NCBI GenBank assembly: GCA_943354475.1
Contig: CALRBT010000001.1
Coordinates: 101,424 to 165,423 of the forward strand
Direction: 5' to 3'
From: Parcubacteria group bacterium
Lineage (GTDB): Bacteria; Patescibacteriota; Minisyncoccia; Phycocordibacterales; CALRBT01
DNA: 64,000 nucleotides
The position numbers were made by a program, and so were the translations under genes. Shown piece after piece: positions 7,642 to 18,640 of this stretch; the first letter of the stretch is position 1, and the number at the start of each line of letters is the position of its first letter. The notes below the pieces were generated by a model, which saw only the letters and a list, made by a program, of their open reading frames with translations, made no database searches and was not told where the DNA came from.

Positions 7642-7703
7642 TTCCCATCCACGGATGCGAAAGACTTGTCTTGAAAATTCTCCAAGATAGATCTTTAATA
7701 TCC

Positions 7704-8648
7704 ATGGCCAATAGGCACCTTTCCAGATCAATAGTAATGCAAACGCTCTTTGAGTGGGACTTTGCAAATGTACTCGAAAAGAAACAAGACGAGCACATCG
7801 ATGAATCCCTGCTACGAAACGCCGAAGAATTCGCTCCGGGCGTTTCTGACGTTCCGTTTATGAAAATGCTGGTCAAAGGGATTCTGGAAAAACGGCAAAC
7901 CCTCGATGATATTATTGTTAAGGCTGCACCGGACTGGCCAATTGACCGCATCTCAGTTATCGATCGAAACATCCTCCGTATCGGACTCTTTGAATTAATT
8001 TTTGCCGACAAGAAAGAAGTGCCCGCTAAAGTTGCCATCAACGAAGCAATTGAACTTGCTAAATCATTTGGTGGAGAGAATAGCGGTAAGTTCGTCAACG
8101 GTGTCCTTGGTGCGGTGTACAAAGAAATGGGGGAGCCGGGTAAAGAAGAAGTTTCAAAGAATAAAAAGAAGAAGAATGGCAAACTAGCCGAAGTTCCTTA
8201 TGAGAAAATGCCCATCCAACGACTAGGTGGTGCTGTAGTCTACGCTAGGGAGGGAGATCAGGTCTATCTCGCACTCGTTCATGACATTTTTGGTCACTGG
8301 ACCCTCTCAAAAGGGAAAATTGGTGATAACCCAGAGATCGCAAACGAAACAGCCAGCGAAGGGACGATTCGAGAAATCAAAGAGGAGATTGGACTCGATA
8401 TTGTCATCAAGGAAGAGCTCTACCTTAATGAATACATTGCCAATGACCCAGAGAAGGGTAAGATTCGCAAACAGGTTCAATACTTTCTGGCTGAATCAAA
8501 GTTCGATGAGGTGAAACTGGAGAAGAGCGGTGGACTCGATGATGCGAGATGGTTCAAGCTCGCTGATATTCTCACCCTTAATTTTTATGACGATGTGCTT
8601 CCTATTGTTACCAAAGCTATTAACATCCTTTTAGTAAAACCAAGTTAG
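7704..8648 (+). CDS. nusB: NusB-family antitermination domain fused to a C-terminal Nudix hydrolase domain
   Basis: The N-terminal half matches NusB (RSIVMQTLFEWDF...AINEAIELAKSFGGENSGKFVNGVL). After a K-rich linker, the C-terminal half has a Nudix box (E-x7-REIKEEIGL). The track start at 7671 is TTG; the ATG is at 7704. Confidence 0.75.
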   Translation: MANRHLSRSIVMQTLFEWDFANVLEKKQDEHIDESLLRNAEEFAPGVSDVPFMKMLVKGILEKRQTLDDIIVKAAPDWPIDRISVIDRNILRIGLFELIFADKKEVPAKVAINEAIELAKSFGGENSGKFVNGVLGAVYKEMGEPGKEEVSKNKKKKNGKLAEVPYEKMPIQRLGGAVVYAREGDQVYLALVHDIFGHWTLSKGKIGDNPEIANETASEGTIREIKEEIGLDIVIKEELYLNEYIANDPEKGKIRKQVQYFLAESKFDEVKLEKSGGLDDARWFKLADILTLNFYDDVLPIVTKAINILLVKPS

Positions 8649-9638: not shown

Positions 9639-10043
9639 ATGATTCACATTAAATACAAACTCGATAAGTCTATTAATCACGGTATAGGTCTTTTCGCAGG
9701 TGAGGACATTCCAAAAGGAGTAGTTGTATATACTGCGAGTCCTTTACTTGACGTGAACTTAACACGAGAAGAGTTCAATTCCTTGAATGAAAAAGAAAAA
9801 GATGAGGTTCGCTGGTGGGGATTTTTTGATGAACAAAGTCAAAAGTGGCATGTTGATTTTGATGTTTCCCGTTTTATTAATCACAGAGCTGACTCAACGG
9901 TAACCCAAGACTCTAATCATACAGAGGCATATCTTGTTACTACACGTGATATTAAAACTGGAGAAGAACTTACCCAAAATTATCTTGAATTTGAAACTGA
10001 AGCAGATTTAATGAAGCGTGGAATAATGAATGTTTTGGGTTAG
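9639..10043 (+). CDS. Small SET-domain protein (putative lysine methyltransferase)
   Basis: HGIGLFAGEDIPKG, RFINHRAD and GEELTQNY correspond to SET motifs (GxG..., RFINHSC, ELxxDY). It ends 9 bp before the smc-like gene. Confidence 0.55.
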   Translation: MIHIKYKLDKSINHGIGLFAGEDIPKGVVVYTASPLLDVNLTREEFNSLNEKEKDEVRWWGFFDEQSQKWHVDFDVSRFINHRADSTVTQDSNHTEAYLVTTRDIKTGEELTQNYLEFETEADLMKRGIMNVLG

Positions 10044-10052
10044 AATGTAGAT

Positions 10053-12344
10053 ATGTATCTCAAGAGTCTTGAAATTTCCGGATTTAAATCCTTTGCTAAA
10101 AAATCAACCCTTGAATTTAACGCGCAAGTGACGGCTATTGTTGGACCCAACGGCTCGGGGAAATCAAACGTGGCGGAAGCATTCCGCTTTGTACTCGGTG
10201 AACAGTCACTAAAATCAATGCGTGGTAAACGCGGAGAGGATTTGATTTTCAATGGTTCTAATAACCAAACGAGGCTTAATCGTGCTGGCGTTAAGGTAAC
10301 CTTTGATAATACCAAGCGCGTTTTTCCCATTGAGTATGACGAGGTAGTTATCGAGCGCGTGGTTCATCGCGATTCACTCAACGAGTATCTTATCAATGGC
10401 TCCAAGGTTAGACTCAAAGACATTATCGAACTCCTCGCGCAGGCCCATATTGGAGCGTCAGGACATCATATTATTTCCCAAGGTGAGGCCGATAGGATTC
10501 TTAACGCGTCAAATAAAGAGCGTAAGGCGATGATTGAAGATGCGCTAGGGCTCAAGATTTATCAATACAAACGCGAAGAGAGTACACGTAAGCTCGAGAA
10601 GACTGAGGAGAATATTGCACAGGTGCAGTCTCTCCGCAAAGAAATCGCGCCACACCTAAAATTTCTCAAGCGTCAGGTTGAAAAAGTGGAGAAAGCCTTT
10701 GCGATGCGAGATGAACTTGTGAAGCTATATCAAGAATACTTCAAGCGAGAAGAATTGTATTTATCGAGAGAACACGAAAAATTAAACAGAGAACAAGAGG
10801 CACCGCAAACCGAACTTCATCAAATTGAGAACAAACTCACTCACTTAAAGCAGGAAATCGAGTCAGAATCTAAAGAAAATGATCGACCGCAAGAAATCGT
10901 AATACTGGAAGAAGCACTTAATCTGATTCGGACTAAGAAAGATGAGTTGGCACGGAATCTCGGGCGACTTGAAGGAGAAATAAGTAGTGAAGAACGCCAG
11001 AGAGATCGTGAGGAGCGAATTGCCAAGATTGAGACAGAGCGACTCATCAAAGTTGGTGAAGTCCGCAAGCTTTTAGATATCCTTAAATCCTCATTTAATG
11101 AAGCAGAAATGGAGGGTGGTTTGGATCGTCTGCGAATGATTATTTCCTCTATGAGCGCGGCGGTAGGGGATTTTGTCCGCACTCACATTGATCAAGTACA
11201 AGAGGGGAGCCATTCATTTGATAGGAGTGAACTCGATCGATTGATTTCCAGAAAATCAGAACTAGAGCTCGAGCTTGAAGTAGTTCGTTTGTCTGAAAAA
11301 GAAGCACAAACCAATTATCAAAAACTCAGAGCTCAGCTTGAAGAAAAGAAAGATTCACTACGGTCAGCAGAGAGAGAAATCTTTGAGCTCGTGGGTAAAC
11401 AAAGTGAGTTGCGTAGAATCCTTGCAGATCTCCGTAACCGTCAGGAACGTCTCCATCTTGAAAAGGAATCATTCGACCGTGAACTCAGGGAGTCTGTGGC
11501 GATAGCTGGGCACGAAGCTATTAGTTTCAACGGAATGGAGTTTGCCAGCCCATCAGGAGAAGCACTCTCTGATGACGAACTCGCCATCACTCCACGTACC
11601 GAGCAAGAAGGACGTTTCAAAACAATTGAGAAGATGAAAATTAGACTTGAAGATGCAGGAGCTTCTGGTGGTGAAGAGACACTCAAAGAATATCAAGATA
11701 TCACCGAGCGAGATCAGTTTTTAGAAAAAGAAATTGCAGACTTAGAGCAATCAGCAGTCTCACTAAAATCACTCATTAAAGATTTGACCTCACAACTTGA
11801 ACGAGATTTCAAAGAGGGGATGGATAAAATCAACACACAGTTCCATGAATTCTTTGCGCTGATGTTTGGTGGCGGACGCGCGGGACTAACACTTCTCCAA
11901 GAGAAGAAGCGAAAACGCGGCAGCACAGAGGATTTGGTACTAACCCAAGATCCAGAAGCCGACTTTGAAGAACCACAAGAGGAACTCGAATCAGGAATTG
12001 AGATTGATATTGCACTTCCACACAAGAAAACCAAGGGACTTGAGATGCTCTCTGGAGGGGAGCGAGCACTTACCTCAATTGCACTTCTCTTTGCAATTTC
12101 TCAAGTTAATCCACCACCGTTTATCATCCTCGATGAGACCGACGCAGCACTCGATGAAGCTAACTCGAAGAAATACGGTACTATGATTGAGAATCTCTCC
12201 AGGTACTCTCAGCTCATTGTAATCACTCACAATCGTGAGACAATGAGCACTGCAAGTATTATCTACGGCGTGACGATGGGAGGGGATGGAATTTCCAAAC
12301 TTCTCTCGATTCAATTTGAGGAAGCGGTAACCGTAGCAAAGTAG
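10053..12344 (+). CDS. smc: SMC-family chromosome-segregation ATPase, short form of 763 aa
   Basis: N-terminal Walker A (GPNGSGKSN), long coiled coil, C-terminal ABC signature LSGGERALTSIAL and Walker B ILDETDAALD. Confidence 0.8.
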   Translation: MYLKSLEISGFKSFAKKSTLEFNAQVTAIVGPNGSGKSNVAEAFRFVLGEQSLKSMRGKRGEDLIFNGSNNQTRLNRAGVKVTFDNTKRVFPIEYDEVVIERVVHRDSLNEYLINGSKVRLKDIIELLAQAHIGASGHHIISQGEADRILNASNKERKAMIEDALGLKIYQYKREESTRKLEKTEENIAQVQSLRKEIAPHLKFLKRQVEKVEKAFAMRDELVKLYQEYFKREELYLSREHEKLNREQEAPQTELHQIENKLTHLKQEIESESKENDRPQEIVILEEALNLIRTKKDELARNLGRLEGEISSEERQRDREERIAKIETERLIKVGEVRKLLDILKSSFNEAEMEGGLDRLRMIISSMSAAVGDFVRTHIDQVQEGSHSFDRSELDRLISRKSELELELEVVRLSEKEAQTNYQKLRAQLEEKKDSLRSAEREIFELVGKQSELRRILADLRNRQERLHLEKESFDRELRESVAIAGHEAISFNGMEFASPSGEALSDDELAITPRTEQEGRFKTIEKMKIRLEDAGASGGEETLKEYQDITERDQFLEKEIADLEQSAVSLKSLIKDLTSQLERDFKEGMDKINTQFHEFFALMFGGGRAGLTLLQEKKRKRGSTEDLVLTQDPEADFEEPQEELESGIEIDIALPHKKTKGLEMLSGGERALTSIALLFAISQVNPPPFIILDETDAALDEANSKKYGTMIENLSRYSQLIVITHNRETMSTASIIYGVTMGGDGISKLLSIQFEEAVTVAK

Positions 12345-12361: not shown

Positions 12362-13360
12362 ATGAAAAAAGCATTTATCACCGGTATTACCGGACAAGAC
12401 GGATCCTATTTGGCAGAGCTCCTTCTCTCGAAAGGATACGAAGTTCATGGCCTCATCCATAATCCATCAGAAACAAAAAATGTTGACTCGATTAAGGATA
12501 AGCTGACACTTCATCCGGGAGACATAACTGATGGAGAGTTACTATCAAAAATCATAATTGAAGGACAATTTGATGAAGTCTACAACCTTGCCGGAATGAC
12601 CAATGTACCCGATTCTTTCGCAGACCCAATCCTTGCTACAAAGATGACAGCACTACCCCCACTTTTTATTCTGGACGCAATTGTTAAGGGCAGTAAGCAC
12701 ACAAAACTTTTCCAAGCATCATCTTCTGAGATGTTTGGTAATGGTACCGAAAGTCCCCAACGAGAAACCTCAGGATTTCATCCGACAAATCCTTACGGTA
12801 TCGCTAAACTCTTTGCTCACCATATCTGTGAGGTATATCGTGGAAAATCCGTATTCGCAGCTTCTGGGATTCTCTATAACCACGAGTCGCCTCGTCGAGG
12901 AGAGAAGTTTGTAACAACAAAAATCGTTCGGACACTGGCAGAAATAAAAATGGGAAAAGCAGAAGTCCTTGAATTGGGAGATATCGATGCGATGCGAGAT
13001 TGGGGATTTGCCGGAGATTATGTCTTGGCCATGTGGGAGATGTTACAAGTAGAAAAGGCAGAAAGCTATATTATCGCATCAGGAGCGACACATTCGGCCC
13101 GAGATTTTGTGGATGCGTCAGCCAAGAGTTTGGGTATCGAATTAACCTGGAGCGGAAAAGGGGTAGATCAAAGAGGTGTGGATCAAAATGGAGTAGTTAG
13201 GGTCAAGGTTAATCCAGAATTTTTCAGACCATCAGAGCTTCATATCCGTCAGGGAGATATTACAAAGATTACAAATGAATTGGGATGGAAATCAAAGGTG
13301 CTCTTTGAGGAATTGGTCAAAATGATGACTGATGCAGAAATGTGTAAACTCCAGGGATAA
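12362..13360 (+). CDS. gmd: GDP-mannose 4,6-dehydratase
   Basis: ITGITGQDGSYLAELL, YGIAK (YxxxK) and ILYNHESPRRGEKFVT. Confidence 0.8.
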   Translation: MKKAFITGITGQDGSYLAELLLSKGYEVHGLIHNPSETKNVDSIKDKLTLHPGDITDGELLSKIIIEGQFDEVYNLAGMTNVPDSFADPILATKMTALPPLFILDAIVKGSKHTKLFQASSSEMFGNGTESPQRETSGFHPTNPYGIAKLFAHHICEVYRGKSVFAASGILYNHESPRRGEKFVTTKIVRTLAEIKMGKAEVLELGDIDAMRDWGFAGDYVLAMWEMLQVEKAESYIIASGATHSARDFVDASAKSLGIELTWSGKGVDQRGVDQNGVVRVKVNPEFFRPSELHIRQGDITKITNELGWKSKVLFEELVKMMTDAEMCKLQG

Positions 13361-13440
13361 TTTTTTCAGTAATCAAAAACAACAACCCCCCGCCCAAAAC
13401 AAGTAGGGCGGGGTGGTTTTTTACAAAAGATTACTCAGTA

Positions 13441-13986
13441 TTATCCCAGTCTAAAGATAGTGCGAAGCATGTCAATGAGGGCTGGGTGACAATTCCCCTC
13501 TTTCAAGCGGTTCTCGTCGAACCGCTGTAGTCCAAAATCTTGGACGTATTCAGAGCCGATGAGCCCAGAGGATATAGTCGCCCGATCTGCAGGGCTAATC
13601 GGATAAGCGAAGGTGACGACGAGGTTTTTGCCGACTCCGCCTTGAGCCGTCTCGCTCCAGGCATACAATGAAGACCCAATGAATAAGAGTTTTTTCGGAT
13701 CTATATCAAATCCTGTCTCTCGCTTCACACAGCGAGCCGCTGAGGCCTCGAGGGTCTCATCGTTAAAGAAAATTCGTCCGCCGATGACCCAAACCCTGGG
13801 GTGGGGTTTGATATTTCGCTTCGCCAAATACAGAGCCAAATCGCCAGGAAGAAAGAAGACTACATCGGTGCAGGGGATTGGCATTTTGTTGACAACTTCG
13901 CCGTAGGCGAGGTCGCCGATTCGCTGGTTCTCCGTCACGATTGGTCCTTGGGCTCCTGGCTCAAGGTAAGTCTTCGCGTGCATCAT
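13441..13986 (-). CDS. gmm: Nudix-family GDP-mannose mannosyl hydrolase-like protein (Gmm/NudD/WcaH-like)
   Basis: VIGGRIFFNDETLEASAARCVKRETGFDI aligns with the E. coli Gmm segment [26 protein letters not shown] as I recall it. It sits between two gmd genes. Confidence 0.6.
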   Translation of the reverse strand: MMHAKTYLEPGAQGPIVTENQRIGDLAYGEVVNKMPIPCTDVVFFLPGDLALYLAKRNIKPHPRVWVIGGRIFFNDETLEASAARCVKRETGFDIDPKKLLFIGSSLYAWSETAQGGVGKNLVVTFAYPISPADRATISSGLIGSEYVQDFGLQRFDENRLKEGNCHPALIDMLRTIFRLG

Positions 13987-14111
13987 CGAGTTCTACTCCC
14001 ACAAAGGTCTAAAGTTGTGTGCTAGCCAAAAACAATGTGTCATTTCAAAGGCAATCTGTCAATTACCAAGCAATCTTTATTTTTAGAAAATAACAAACAA
14101 AAATAGTCTGC

Positions 14112-15122
14112 TTACCGAGTCAGTATTTTTTGGTCAGCCTCGATCATCATCGCAATCATTTCTTTAAATGAGACTTGTGGAACCCAACCGAGCACTTCTT
14201 TCGCCTTACTTGCATCACCTCGTAAGTAATCTACTTCATTTGGACGATAAAAATATTTATTGATGCGAATGATAATCTTACCATCTTTAGTAATTCCTAT
14301 TTCATCCAACCCTTCTCCTTGCCAGGTTAAACCCAGGTCTAAAATTTCAGAAGCCATTTCCACCATCTCTCTAATCGTTCGCGACACTCCGGTAGCAATA
14401 ACAAAATCATCAGCCACCTCTTGTTGGAGCATTCGCCACATAGCATTAACATAATCTCCGGCAAAACCCCAGTCACGACGTGCTTCGAGATTCCCCAATT
14501 CAAAGCCTTCGATCATTCCTAATTTTATTTTAACTAAATTTTGTGTCACTTTGCGAGTTACAAAGTTTTCCCCTCGGCGAGGCGACTCGTGATTGAAGAG
14601 AATACCAGAGCAAATAAAGTGTCCTTTCTCTCGCAGTGCTTTGACAATATCGGTATGTGTCTTATGTTTTGACTCTCCATACGGAGAAACAGGTTCAAAG
14701 GGACTTGCTTCATTTTGTGGAGGCTGCGTTTTACCATACATCTCTGAAGTTGAAGCTTGGTAGAATTTAACCTTTGGGTTTTGTTTAAATGCCTCATCAG
14801 CGAGCATTTTAACTCCTTCAAAATTTATGGCCCAAGTTTCATCGGGGCAGTCAAACGAGATACGAACGTCAGATTGCCCTGCAAGGTTATATATTTCATC
14901 CGGCTTTGCAATTTCGAGAGCTCTAATAAGGGTTGCCTTGTCCCTCATATTTCCATAAATCAATTTGACCCTATCATTCTTGATAAGGTGGTTAATCCGA
15001 ATGAATGGATCAGTACTGGTTCGTCTGACCAACCCGTAGATTTCGTAATCTTTAGTTTCTAAAAGGTCTGCCAAATAGGATCCGTCTTGTCCGGTAATAC
15101 CCGTGATGAGTGCTCGCTTCAT
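14112..15122 (-). CDS. gmd: GDP-mannose 4,6-dehydratase, second diverged paralog
   Basis: ITGITGQDGSYLADLL, YGESK, ILFNHESPRRGENFVTRK and MLQQEVADDFVIATG. Confidence 0.8.
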   Translation of the reverse strand: MKRALITGITGQDGSYLADLLETKDYEIYGLVRRTSTDPFIRINHLIKNDRVKLIYGNMRDKATLIRALEIAKPDEIYNLAGQSDVRISFDCPDETWAINFEGVKMLADEAFKQNPKVKFYQASTSEMYGKTQPPQNEASPFEPVSPYGESKHKTHTDIVKALREKGHFICSGILFNHESPRRGENFVTRKVTQNLVKIKLGMIEGFELGNLEARRDWGFAGDYVNAMWRMLQQEVADDFVIATGVSRTIREMVEMASEILDLGLTWQGEGLDEIGITKDGKIIIRINKYFYRPNEVDYLRGDASKAKEVLGWVPQVSFKEMIAMMIEADQKILTR

Positions 15123-15278
15123 ATAGTGCTATAATAAGTTCAACATATTGTATGTTTCTCTGGATTAATTTGCAAACATGTAGACAAAGAATGTAAACTG
15201 CACAGTGAATTAGTATCTTCCGTCACGATTGATTATATATTTAAAAAACTTAAAACCAATTTTATGAAAGGTGAAGGG

Positions 15279-16265
15279 ATGAAGGACACGTCGAATCGTA
15301 AAAAGCAAGAGACCGTCAAGGAGAAAGACAAACCTCTCACTGAGAACCCACACGATATTCCAGAGCGACAAATTCCTCAAGAAACGCTTGAACAAGAAGC
15401 TGAGCGATTACTAGAAAATTTATTGAGTGATAAAGACAATGCTTTTCTTACTGAGCATGAAGAAAATAAAAAACGTTTGGATGAATTCTCCTCGGCGGTT
15501 CAAGCGCTTGCGTTTGCACTCAAAAAGATAGATGAACGTCATGAGCGAACCTCTCGCCTCACACTCGCTTCCCCTGAGGTGTTAGGAGTAGAGATAGTAA
15601 ATGTGAATCCTGTGGGTATAAGGAAGAACGTTGAAGAGATCTTAAAACATGCAATGGAAATTGGTAGGGGAGGTGACGCAATCGTTGTTGTTGATAAAAG
15701 TGAAGTTAGGAGTTTACCTCCAGAAATTTGTTACAAGTTTGCGATTACTGAGACCACCCCTCGTGGAAGAAACTCCACTTTCTCTGAAATTGCTCTCCAA
15801 GAAGCTTTTTACAAAGCTAATATGGAGGTTCCAGAAAGCAAAATTGGTGTACCTATTCCATTTTACGCACATGAGGTTGGAATACATAAAGTGATCGCAA
15901 TGGAGAAGCTCAATGCTAAAAGCGTAGATGATATTTTGCACAGTAAAGGGACGCTACCCCCATGGTTTGATGTCGACACGTTTTGTGATGAATTACACAC
16001 AGTGCTTGATCACTTTCATGCGAAGGGTCTATATCACCGGGACATGCATGAAGGTAATATTATGATTTCTCAACAAAAAGAAATTGGGGATGGAGATAAA
16101 ATCGGTTTTATTATTGATTTTGGCCTCTCTGTTCAAGACGATACAGGGATAGAACCATATAAAAAACAGGTTGCTGGGACAACCTTTACATATTCAGACG
16201 ATTATGGTATCATAAAAAGAGTACAAACTGCTCTTAAAACGTATCAAAAAACACATTTAGCATGA
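15279..16265 (+). CDS. Minimal protein-kinase-like-fold protein (RIO/Bud32/Kdo-kinase-like) with an acidic coiled N-terminal region
   Basis: Catalytic loop YHRDMHEGNIMI and IIDFGLS (DFG), with no activation-segment/APE region after the DFG. The start was moved to the ATG at 15279, preceded by AAAGGTGAAGGG. Confidence 0.5.
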   Translation: MKDTSNRKKQETVKEKDKPLTENPHDIPERQIPQETLEQEAERLLENLLSDKDNAFLTEHEENKKRLDEFSSAVQALAFALKKIDERHERTSRLTLASPEVLGVEIVNVNPVGIRKNVEEILKHAMEIGRGGDAIVVVDKSEVRSLPPEICYKFAITETTPRGRNSTFSEIALQEAFYKANMEVPESKIGVPIPFYAHEVGIHKVIAMEKLNAKSVDDILHSKGTLPPWFDVDTFCDELHTVLDHFHAKGLYHRDMHEGNIMISQQKEIGDGDKIGFIIDFGLSVQDDTGIEPYKKQVAGTTFTYSDDYGIIKRVQTALKTYQKTHLA

Positions 16266-16486
16266 AAGGTATGACAATGAAGATTACGCCTCAAATGGCT
16301 AGAATTATAAGAGCAACCGTAGAGAACCCTCTTGGTGAGGGTGAGATGCGGCGTCTTCCAGGTATGGGGGATCTGTTCGTTTCCCTCGTTGAGCCGGGTA
16401 AGCACAACGACTCAAAGCATAATCATCTATATGATGTTCGAGTTGATGGGGTTGCTTACCATATTTATGGGGGAGTTTCGCAGTGA
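16262..16486 (+). CDS. Small hypothetical protein overlapping the kinase stop (ATGA)
   Basis: The ORF begins ATGAAAGGTATGACAATGAAG, so the true start is likely an internal ATG after AAAGGT. No recognisable domain. Confidence 0.35.
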   Translation: MKGMTMKITPQMARIIRATVENPLGEGEMRRLPGMGDLFVSLVEPGKHNDSKHNHLYDVRVDGVAYHIYGGVSQ

Positions 16487-16573
16487 GGTTCGGTGACGGC
16501 GATAGGTGCCGGTGTATTGCTTTTTCGCGTACATCGGCCCTTTTCTATTTAAAAATAAATTCAGGATTTTTTA

Positions 16574-18640
16574 TTAAACTAAACTATAATCAAGAGTCTT
16601 TCGTTCCATGTCGGCAGCTACCACTTTAAATCGTACGGTATCCCCAAGTGAATACTTATTTTTAGTTCGCTCACCAATGAGACAGTAGTTTTTTTGATCG
16701 AGTTTGTAGTAGTCATCTTGAAGATCTCGTAGTTTGACCATTCCTTCACATTTAGTTTCTTTATCTTCAACATAGATACCCCATTCGGTAACGCCAGTAA
16801 TTGTGCCGTCAAACTCTTCGCCGAGGTGTTTAGTCATGTATTCAACCTGTTTGTACTTGATCGAATCACGTTCAGCCATAGTCGCGCGAATCTCATTCTC
16901 GGTTGAATCCCTAGAAATTTTCTCGAACTCAGCCATCTCGGCATCAGTAATAGTCTCGCCAGCTAAGTGTCGCATCAGAAGCCTATGGACCATCAGATCG
17001 GGGTAACGACGAATCGGTGAGGTGAAATTTGTATAGTAACCAAACCCTAGACCAAAGTGTCCGATATTCTTGGTCGAGTAAATCGCTTTGGCCATTGAAC
17101 GAAGGGTCGCGGTCTTAATCAAGCCTTCTTCTGCTTTCCCTTCAATCTGTCGTAAGAGTGCGTTGATATCTTTGGCGCGGACGTTCGTCCCTTTTTTGTA
17201 GGGGAGTGAGTATCCGAGGGCCTTAACAAAGATCGCTAGCTCTTCAATCTTCTCAGGATTTGGTACGTCGTGGATACGATAGACAAAGCCTTTTGCTTTT
17301 TTGGTTTTCTCGCTTAATTTCTCGATTGATTCAGCGACTTCTCGGTTAGCCAGGAGCATGAATTCCTCAACTAGTTTGTGTGCATCTTTACGTTCCTTAC
17401 GGTAGACACGGATTGGCACGCCCTCATTATCTAATTCAAATTTTACTTCATCGGTCTCAAATGAGATGGCGCCATTGTAATATTTCTGCCGCTCAAGGAT
17501 TTTGGCAATACTATTTAATGTCTTGAGCTCGGTAGAAAATTCAGTTCCGTGCCCTTCCAAAACCTCTTGCGCGCCTTCATACGTAAATCGCTTACTTGAA
17601 TGGATGATTGTCTTGCCGAACCATCGCTCCAATACCTTACCCTTGGAATCCATAATAAAGATGGCAGAGACAGCGAGTTTATCTTCATTGGGGCGAAGGC
17701 TACAGAGATTGTTTGAAAGAATTTCAGGAAGCATCGGAATAGTACGGTCGACGAGATAGACGGAGACACCACGTTTCTTGGCTTCAGTGTCGATGGCGGT
17801 CTTGGGTGTAACATAATAGGAGACGTCAGCGATATGCACGCCAATCTCAAAGCGATCATTGCCTAGATCCTTAAATGATATTGCATCGTCAAAGTCTTTA
17901 GCGTCGATTGGGTCAATGGTGAGCGTTACTACCCCTCGCATATCACGACGCTTAGCAATTTCTTCGGTAGGAATAGCCTGGTGTTCTTCGAAATATTCAG
18001 CTTCTTTGTTTACTTCAGTGGGGTACTCAATACGGAATCCTTTCTCAATCAAGATTGACTCCATCTCAGTGTTGTTCTTGCCCTTGATGCCGATGACTTT
18101 GATGATCTCACCTTGGGGATTTGTTTCGCCATCACTCCATCCTGTCATTTTGACCAACATTTTCATTCCAACCTTTGCACCATTTTCCTTTTCATTTTTA
18201 TCAAAATTTTCTTTTGAAATTGCAATATCCGTATACATTTTACGGTCATCGGGGAGAAGAAAATACTTCCCGCGTTCTTCTTCAAGTACTCCCACGAACT
18301 CCACTTTGGCACGCTGGATGATGCGAACCACTTCGCCTTGATTTCGTCCAGCGCGATTGAACGGCAAGAGTTTAACCTCCACCTCATCCCCGTGGAGAGC
18401 GGTGTGTAGGTACTGTGTATCAATTTCAATGTCCTCAGTAAACCGAGTATCGGCAATATAACCGGTACCCTTTCCTGAGACGCTAAGTGGTCCCGTAATC
18501 AGTACAGTAGAATCTATCTTTATTGTCTTGGTGGGGGCACGGTAGCCTCCAGTCCTCTCCTGTGGACGAGAAAAGCCCTTTTTTGGGCCGTTAGCACTCC
18601 CTGAGGTGTCTTTGGAACCCCCTTTACTATCTTGACGCAT
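16574..18640 (-). CDS. rnr: Ribonuclease R (RNB family) with an N-terminal K/R-rich extension
   Basis: Cold-shock/OB region, RNB motif DAKDFDDAISF...GVHIADVSYYV and a C-terminal S1 domain. Confidence 0.9.
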   Translation of the reverse strand: MRQDSKGGSKDTSGSANGPKKGFSRPQERTGGYRAPTKTIKIDSTVLITGPLSVSGKGTGYIADTRFTEDIEIDTQYLHTALHGDEVEVKLLPFNRAGRNQGEVVRIIQRAKVEFVGVLEEERGKYFLLPDDRKMYTDIAISKENFDKNEKENGAKVGMKMLVKMTGWSDGETNPQGEIIKVIGIKGKNNTEMESILIEKGFRIEYPTEVNKEAEYFEEHQAIPTEEIAKRRDMRGVVTLTIDPIDAKDFDDAISFKDLGNDRFEIGVHIADVSYYVTPKTAIDTEAKKRGVSVYLVDRTIPMLPEILSNNLCSLRPNEDKLAVSAIFIMDSKGKVLERWFGKTIIHSSKRFTYEGAQEVLEGHGTEFSTELKTLNSIAKILERQKYYNGAISFETDEVKFELDNEGVPIRVYRKERKDAHKLVEEFMLLANREVAESIEKLSEKTKKAKGFVYRIHDVPNPEKIEELAIFVKALGYSLPYKKGTNVRAKDINALLRQIEGKAEEGLIKTATLRSMAKAIYSTKNIGHFGLGFGYYTNFTSPIRRYPDLMVHRLLMRHLAGETITDAEMAEFEKISRDSTENEIRATMAERDSIKYKQVEYMTKHLGEEFDGTITGVTEWGIYVEDKETKCEGMVKLRDLQDDYYKLDQKNYCLIGERTKNKYSLGDTVRFKVVAADMERKTLDYSLV

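Follow-up and report, generated by a model that had tools for sequence, protein, structure and literature searches.

What does a protein kinase do when it stops shortly after its catalytic motifs, and what is the role of a protein of only ∼70 residues whose gene follows it directly? These questions are raised by a pair of genes at positions 15279 to 16486 of a 64,000-nucleotide stretch of contig CALRBT010000001.1 from Parcubacteria group bacterium, referred to here as the window. The evidence leads us to propose, with moderate confidence, that the pair constitutes a single operon encoding an obligate two-subunit enzyme of the Patescibacteria, native to the chromosome and vertically inherited. 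Patescibacteria have tiny genomes and very few regulators. Given that the kinase module is kept in such regulator-poor genomes, apparently once in each, it likely controls something central.

The larger gene had been described in an earlier note, made from the letters of the window, as an open reading frame (ORF) for a kinase-like protein of 328 residues. The ORF map places it on the + strand, from either 15264 or 15279 to 16265; public gene calls (P0001) correspond to the 328-residue form, so that the start at 15279 is likely. The HRD-type loop YHRDMHEGNIMI and the DFG motif within IIDFGLS, both pointed out in the note, are located in this frame. The catalytic set was found in full and comprises a GxGxxG/A loop, the β3 lysine, the C-helix glutamate, the HRD aspartate, the catalytic asparagine, and the DFG aspartate. 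In an alignment of 33 homologues, Gly134, Gly136, Lys158, and Glu175 are invariant, as are His258, Arg259, Asp260, His262, Gly264, and Asn265 of the catalytic loop and Asp285 and Gly287 of the DFG motif. When 71 members were aligned, the four N-lobe residues were kept in 57–66 of them, the exceptions being mostly gaps, Asp260 and Asn265 of the catalytic loop were likewise conserved, and Asp285, Phe286, and Gly287 were found in 71, 68, and 70 sequences, respectively. The catalytic loop follows the pattern HRDxHxGN, with histidine in place of the lysine of the canonical HRDxKxxN.

The polypeptide ends 48 residues beyond the DFG aspartate, close to the ∼45 residues first estimated, and the truncation is family-wide (median of 50 residues, range of 17–68, among the 71 members). 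A literal APE motif was not found in the kinase, as had been noted, and the match to the Pfam Pkinase model ends at position 160 of 263, without the complete C-lobe that carries APE and helices G to I. The claim that there is no activation segment did not hold: a segment of ∼27 residues between DFG and the last helix is conserved (consensus PYxKExAGxTFTYxDDYG, with Tyr299 and Asp313 invariant in the 33 sequences) and aligns in part to casein kinase 1 (CK1), the alignment running from the C-helix region through DFG up to the PY/KE residues. We take this segment to resemble the activation segment of CK1. In the AlphaFold model of the kinase (overall pLDDT of 84.8), it contains two strands, 300–303 and 306–309 (pLDDT of 72–73), and the N-lobe, hinge, helix E, and catalytic loop are normal. 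The terminal helix, residues 315–332, is presumably helix F, and with this assignment, the missing part corresponds to helices G to I. In ordinary protein kinases, the helix G–I platform stabilizes the C-lobe and docks substrates.

The N terminus is acidic and coiled, in agreement with the earlier description, with a pI of 5.4 for residues 1–95 and helical structure across residues 39–96 of the model; residues 1–38 are disordered. The extension ahead of the kinase core comprises helices 39–55, 61–64, 66–74, 78–96, and 116–128, the last of which lies just before strand 1, and a short strand at 98–101. Its conserved residues in the 33-sequence alignment are Glu43, Ala46, Leu50, Phe61, Leu62, Ala81, Leu82, and Arg92, several of them nearly invariant. 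The shortest distant kinases (∼200–245 residues) have little sequence ahead of the glycine-rich loop.

The window kinase is judged closest by sequence to the classical eukaryotic-type protein kinases (ePKs). The Pkinase model (PF00069) scored 39.8 bits with the window protein, against a gathering threshold of 31.7, and matched 32 of 33 family members at E ≤ 0.001, with 43–66 bits in the distant relatives. The best profile match to a solved structure was obtained with CK1 (E = 4e-8). Compared with the Hanks Ser/Thr kinases (PF00069; PknB and CK1), the protein lacks helices G–I and APE and has the histidine of HRDxHxGN in place of lysine, and the window subfamily adds a helical N-terminal extension of ∼95 residues and an obligate 70-residue partner gene. 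The fold is known, but the kinase forms a new, truncated subfamily within it. In the public database, it is represented by 110 clusters at 38–65% identity, all of ∼300–335 residues; where the members carry a name at all, it is “serine/threonine protein kinase,” “Bud32,” or “hypothetical.”

The kinship to RIO, Bud32, and Kdo kinases that had been suggested was reduced to a likeness in small size, with the Bud32 and Kdo models scoring far below their cut-offs. Bud32 membership (TIGR03724, PRK14879) was rejected at 29 bits against a cut-off of 125 (best E of 5e-9 among the 33 members), and Kdo/WaaP membership (PF06293) at 17.8 bits against 21.3, with 5 of 33 members matching at E ≤ 0.001. Membership of ABC1/UbiB was likewise rejected, the matches covering the catalytic core only (PF03109, 22.4 versus 22.9 bits; TIGR01982, 23.8 versus 487 bits); weak ABC1 matches occur in 27 of 33 family members. 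The H-x-G-N half of the catalytic loop resembles the HxDxHPGN signature of ABC1, and the histidine recalls the UbiB-type ATPases; unlike UbiB/ABC1/COQ8, the window kinase is much smaller, and it leaves the N-terminal portion of the ABC1 model unmatched. For the window kinase, the APH model of Pfam remained below its cut-off, and the HipA-family models gave no match. Pfam OspG_kinase gave weak, sub-threshold matches in distant relatives only.

RIO membership (PF01163) was rejected because no RIO1 match was obtained for the window protein at E ≤ 1. Some distant relatives reach 27–29 bits for RIO1, with much higher Pkinase scores, and in structure, the kinase model resembles RIO kinases only slightly more than it does ordinary kinases. 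Unlike Rio1 and Rio2, the window kinase carries DFG and HRD and not the RIO motifs, is bacterial, and has a partner gene. These data bear on a more specific form of the proposed two-subunit enzyme, in which the kinase would be a RIO-like assembly-factor ATPase acting on ribosomes or RNA-processing complexes by ATP-driven conformational switching, not signaling, and the small protein its docking adaptor. We regard this form as quite improbable.

No membrane or secretion features were detected in the kinase, which has no secretion signal or toxin-delivery domain and a maximum 19-residue hydropathy of 1.08. As far as its sequence can tell, the large protein is best explained as a catalytically competent, cytoplasmic, minimal ePK-like kinase. 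The HRD arginine and the conserved TFTY hairpin of the orthologues would be in keeping with a kinase that is regulated through autophosphorylation.

The small ORF is a real gene, and its product represents an undescribed family. In line with the earlier statement that it has no assigned function, no Pfam, NCBIfam, or PADLOC match was found for it. A word-index homologue search with the small ORF returned the query alone, a false negative and an artefact of sensitivity; searches of this kind can wrongly call such short genes orphans. The contigs of the first six relatives carried a gene of 69–75 codons 3′ of the kinase, and the products of four align at 30–49% identity in pairwise comparison. 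An exhaustive profile search of 1.84 billion representatives yielded 171 proteins at E ≤ 0.001, nearly all of them stand-alone proteins of 60–90 residues. Thus, a protein so far unannotated gains a family definition through these 171 cluster representatives; Pfam has no entry for it. The family consensus is M-x-[IL]-[ST], a helix, PLxxGExRRIEGxGxLYxS, a variable loop, and YxxxYSLxIDGxxYxxY. In the AlphaFold model (pLDDT of 83.4), a helix at residues 5–16 is followed by four strands, and no match to a solved structure was found by fold or by sequence (E ≤ 10). The small protein is unrelated to the kinase (hhalign, 0.4%). In one locus (L002, 5447–5680, +), a second, diverged copy of the small gene lies ∼260 nt past the first and has a 6-residue insertion in the conserved loop.

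To place the pair among its relatives, 79 loci were collected by a pattern scan with two sequence patterns and one genome per species, a procedure that inflates the invariance of those motifs and gives no estimate of the prevalence of the pair. Almost all of the loci come from metagenome-assembled genomes of Patescibacteria, including Paceibacteria, Kaiserbacteria, Adlerbacteria, Nomurabacteria, and Moranbacteria; a few are labeled as other phyla, and we suspect that these labels are wrong. Kinase orthologues score >300 bits, have 298–337 residues, and carry the N-terminal extension. The distant kinases score 60–135 bits, have mostly 200–300 residues, and show little or no extension.

A homologue of the small gene lies directly 3′ of the kinase in all 21 nonredundant orthologous loci for which sequence could be obtained, the window included (hidden Markov model (HMM) E values of 1e-5 to 1e-38). 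In 20 of the 21, the distance between the kinase stop and the start of the small gene is −11 to +15 nt, and seven loci show a 4-nt overlap. A same-strand ORF, typically of 64–102 residues and −52 to +66 nt from the kinase stop, was likewise present in 53 of 53 distant loci, the choice of ORF being ambiguous in one (L063). Absence of the small ORF from all relatives that carry the kinase, which the earlier note had named as the outcome contrary to its proposal of a kinase with an adaptor or substrate, was therefore not observed; given that the small partner is conserved in all loci, that proposal stands. The small gene is the only gene always found with the kinase.

The distant small ORFs share the pattern of a helix followed by strands, and comparison of the orthologous and distant small-protein profiles gave a full-length hhalign match with a probability of 93% (E = 3e-7). 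Controls gave 0.4% for the reversed profile, 0.1–0.3% for shuffled columns, and 1.5% for the unrelated HU family. A jackhmmer search over all ORFs of the loci made no link between the two groups at E = 1e-3, and the link rests on the hhalign comparison with its controls and on HMM matches in a restricted database. Because the pairing is found in orthologous and distant loci, the module is ancient and invariant in the superfamily. Purine-rich motifs occur at the equivalent place in relatives, inside the 3′ end of the kinase gene, and these boxes, together with the tight spacing and the overlaps, imply translational coupling. The kinase and the small protein very probably work together. No paper on this kinase/small-protein family was found in the literature.

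The complete core, the lost docking part, the absence of membrane or secretion features, and the constant, tight co-encoding of the two proteins lead us to infer a stoichiometric complex. In the proposed mechanism, the kinase would bind ATP through its glycine-rich loop and the Lys158–Glu175 pair, and the γ-phosphate would be transferred or hydrolyzed with the aid of Asp260, Asn265, and Asp285. A short CK1-like activation hairpin is present, and the helix G–I platform would be gone. The small protein would be made in step with the kinase through translational coupling and would bind to it as a dedicated regulatory or adaptor subunit that may stabilize the truncated kinase, activate it, or confer target specificity. 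The output would be either protein phosphorylation or ATPase switching.

The nearest analogies for the suggested role of the small subunit would be E2~ubiquitin, the activator of OspG, and Kae1 and Cgi121, the partners with which Bud32 functions. OspG, NleH, and HopBF1 are secreted virulence effectors of proteobacterial pathogens with host-protein partners, whereas the pair considered here is a chromosomal housekeeping pair that brings its own partner. It offers a natural test of the minimal kinase fold: the catalytic core has been kept whole, the half of the C-lobe that docks substrates has been lost, and a dedicated 70-residue protein always goes with it. Should the small protein act in trans to complete or switch the kinase, it would be a new kind of kinase regulatory subunit, and the pair would be a bacterial, self-encoded counterpart of OspG and its E2~ubiquitin and of Bud32 and its partners Kae1 and Cgi121.

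Several observations weigh against an obligate two-subunit enzyme. The divergence of the small protein shows no correlation with that of the kinase (Spearman coefficient of 0.14, p = 0.18), and no fusion of the two proteins was seen among the 150 small-protein matches listed. With 74 pairs, too few for coupling analysis, binding is something that we infer. Because HRDxHxGN served as one of the two search patterns for the loci, its invariance is inflated. Finally, the kinase has the full catalytic set of an RD kinase, and the small protein could be its substrate.

This last alternative sees in the small protein the dedicated phospho-acceptor of the kinase, for example through Thr4, and hence a one-protein phospho-switch of the kind that SpoIIAA provides for SpoIIAB. 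A universal and tight pairing is in keeping with it, as is the presence of Ser or Thr at position 4 in 91% of the orthologues and 67% of the distant homologues. Position 4 (Thr4 in the window) is the best candidate acceptor but is not invariant: two of the 22 orthologues carry Asn there, and about a third of the distant small proteins carry Ala or some other residue. In the AlphaFold model, it caps the N terminus of helix 1. Helix N-caps are usually formed by Ser, Thr, or Asn for structural reasons, and the substitution pattern at position 4 fits such an N-cap. Elsewhere in the small protein, the orthologous and distant groups have no conserved Ser, Thr, or Tyr column in common, and no phosphatase gene is conserved near the pair in either set of loci. 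Given that there is no invariant phospho-acceptor and that position 4 varies and sits at the N-cap, a pure substrate role is less likely, and we consider it an unlikely explanation of the pair.

Further information on the proposed two-subunit enzyme comes from the genes around it. In the window, the pair is flanked as the earlier note had described, with a GDP-mannose dehydratase gene (gmd) at 14112–15122 (−) on one side and the RNase R gene at 16574–18640 (−) on the other. The pair lies among core genes, in the order DnaE, RNase HII, NusB-Nudix, RNase III, SET, SMC, gmd-Nudix-gmd, the pair, RNase R, S16, KhpA, and TrmD. In the closest relative (L001, positions 1546–1559), 12 nt separate the SMC stop from the start of the kinase gene that follows, and the cassette of gmd (+), Nudix (−), and gmd (−) found at 12362–15122 of the window is missing. 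Given that SMC adjoins the kinase there, the cassette looks like a local insertion.

Most orthologous loci share a conserved block of PrsW, a class I aminoacyl-tRNA synthetase, TsaD in divergent orientation, in many cases MYG1 or a DHH exonuclease, the kinase with its small gene, and an ABC exporter. Within the 21 loci, TsaD was counted in 14, the synthetase in 11, MYG1 in 9, and the ABC exporter in 8. The divergent TsaD gene lies 0.13–2.4 kb 5′ of the kinase in these 14 loci and is also found in the truncated locus L022. Kinase divergence and TsaD divergence are correlated (Spearman coefficient of 0.42, p = 3e-5), a result that fits vertical co-inheritance. The neighboring TsaD is not Kae1 but the usual bacterial form, scoring 359 bits where the cut-off is 296. 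Three TsaD proteins (L003, 2503–3666, −; L005, 2498–3706, −; L007, 1413–2585, −) have 387–402 residues, and their match to the TsaD model is split by an insertion of ∼45 residues around positions 60–110. TsaD is absent beside the window pair and beside almost all distant loci; it lies 5.1 kb from the kinase in distant locus L035 and 3.2 kb from it in the weaker outlier L079. The neighbors of the distant loci are HU, RNase Y, L19, RluA, YraN, or the CCA-adding enzyme.

The presence of TsaD bears on an alternative in which the kinase and its small subunit would act as a Bud32-like ATPase with the adjacent bacterial TsaD, forming a KEOPS-like accessory module for the tRNA modification threonylcarbamoyladenosine (t6A). 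The divergent TsaD genes upstream speak for such a module, as does a TsaC/Sua5 gene 1.2 kb 3′ of the pair in L007. Archaeal Bud32 is, moreover, the only specific NCBIfam model to match 33 of 33 members, although with weak scores and in a collection that has no general kinase model; several members are automatically annotated as Bud32 by JGI, and the protein falls in the same minimal-kinase size class and has an IIDFGLS motif. Like Bud32/PRPK of KEOPS, the protein is a small atypical kinase, and it would be an ATPase working within a complex with small partners, next to a member of the Kae1 family in the 14 loci mentioned. Unlike Bud32, it has another catalytic-loop motif, an activation-like hairpin, a TsaD neighbor of bacterial type, and a 70-residue partner without a structure match. 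The model-score tests of Bud32 membership failed, and adjacency to TsaD is not universal. A KEOPS-like module is highly improbable in our judgment, and there is similarly little prospect that the pair supplements or replaces TsaB-TsaE in Patescibacteria as a variant of the t6A pathway. If it were true, the Kae1–Bud32 partnership of archaea and eukaryotes would have its first counterpart in bacteria.

A toxin-antitoxin-like module had also been suggested, and the same neighborhood argues against it. Under this alternative, which extends to effector-immunity and phage-defense pairs, the kinase would be a toxin neutralized by the small protein. A two-gene module with translational coupling and a small, fast-evolving second gene (average identity of 39%, versus 47% for the kinase) would suit it, as would the generic similarity of the kinase to PADLOC PD-T4-6 kinase models (up to 41 bits) and the fact that the minimal kinases OspG and HopBF1 are secreted effectors. 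On the other side, each recovered genome yielded a single locus, and the pair lies in a conserved housekeeping block, has native GC content (0.40–0.415, against 0.38–0.45 in the flanks), and diverges in step with TsaD. No mobile-element genes are conserved near it in the orthologous or distant loci, the kinase has neither a secretion signal nor a delivery domain, the PADLOC matches are those of a generic kinase domain, and the small protein has none. Toxin-antitoxin genes were seen only in L002, where ParE and RelB lie 3 kb away and are unrelated. HipA/HipB and HipBST also combine a kinase gene with a small partner gene, but the conservation pattern of the pair is that of a core gene; HipA belongs to a different kinase fold class, and the antitoxin gene comes first in hip operons. 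A toxin-antitoxin or defense module was rejected on distribution, synteny, GC content, and PADLOC results, and we hold this alternative to be very unlikely.

Genes for RNA-degrading enzymes recur near the pair. An exonuclease gene, of the MYG1 type in 9 of 21 loci or DHH/NrnA-like in 5 of 21, lies immediately upstream (e.g. L005, 3817–4689, and L009, 8789–9775). RNase R is convergent 3′ of the pair in the window and L001, and RNase Y and HU lie near 12–16 distant loci (e.g. L053, 3500–5053). This recurrence may be due to chance in genomes dense in RNA genes.

The positions of the features of the pair are collected in Table 1. At the junction of the two genes, the TGA stop of the kinase does lie within ATGA (16262–16265), as had been claimed, and this ATG opens a 74-residue ORF that runs to 16486; the likely start of the small gene is, instead, the ATG at 16277, 11 nt past the kinase stop, given the alignment with 20 homologues and a public gene call of 69 residues (P0111). 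The shared start context of the two genes was confirmed, in that ATGAAAGGT-N6-ATGAAG occurs exactly twice in the window (15264–15284 and 16262–16282) and had no match in 100 shuffles of the 64-kb sequence. Since this context is unusual in the window but missing from L001, the closest relative, a role as a conserved regulatory element was rejected. The context may be read as an AAAGG Shine-Dalgarno-like box 7–8 nt before the real ATG combined with a Met-Lys start.

Table 1. Features of the kinase gene, the small partner gene, and their flanking signals in the window
Feature	Position	Strand	Remarks
Divergent intergenic region	15123..15263	.	141 nt, gmd (−) to kinase; presumed promoter region
Purine-rich, Shine-Dalgarno-like stretch AAAGGTGAAGGG	15267..15278	+	Directly 5′ of ATG 15279; inside the 21-nt start context
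Minimal ePK-like kinase gene	15279..16265	+	328 aa; alternative start 15264 gives 333 aa
N-terminal extension	15378..15647	+	Residues 39–128 (333-aa numbering); subfamily-specific, mainly helical (AlphaFold model)
N-lobe catalytic elements	15660..15788	+	IGRGGDAIVV (133–142), Lys158 in CYKF, Glu175 in C-helix
Catalytic loop YHRDMHEGNIMI	16032..16067	+	Residues 257–268 (333-aa numbering)
DFG motif IIDFGLS	16110..16130	+	Residues 283–289; metal-binding
Short activation-segment-like hairpin	16131..16205	+	Residues 290–314; conserved PY...AGxTFTYxDDYG
Terminal helix	16206..16259	+	Residues 315–332; pLDDT of 88–97 in model; protein stops here
Shine-Dalgarno-like AAAGGT	16265..16270	+	7 nt 5′ of ATG 16277; overlaps kinase stop
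Small partner gene	16277..16486	+	69 aa; longest ORF, from 16262, 74 aa; alpha + four-strand protein
Terminator-like hairpin and U-rich tract	16504..16551	+	Between convergent small gene and RNase R

A consensus scan of the intergenic region ahead of the kinase found only weak σ70-like sites, on the − strand only (15176–15147), and no + strand promoter for the pair. At the other end, RNA folding of 16484–16575 gave a stem at 16504–16541 followed by UUUUCUAUUU, with a z-score for the whole segment of only −1.24. An analogous hairpin was seen by eye 3′ of the small gene in L001. The hairpin with its U-rich tract looks like a candidate operon end.

Three other ORFs of the window deserve brief description. 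At 7671–8648, a 325-residue protein combines a full NusB domain (residues 18–151) with a C-terminal NUDIX domain (residues 188–303), an unusual fusion. A SET-domain protein of 134 residues (Pfam E of 1.6e-13) is encoded in this bacterial genome at 9639–10043, just upstream of the SMC gene. The SMC homologue itself (10053–12344) has only 763 residues but retains the N-terminal head motif and the LSGGE and DE(T)D motifs of the C-terminal head; its coiled-coil arms must therefore be much shorter than usual.

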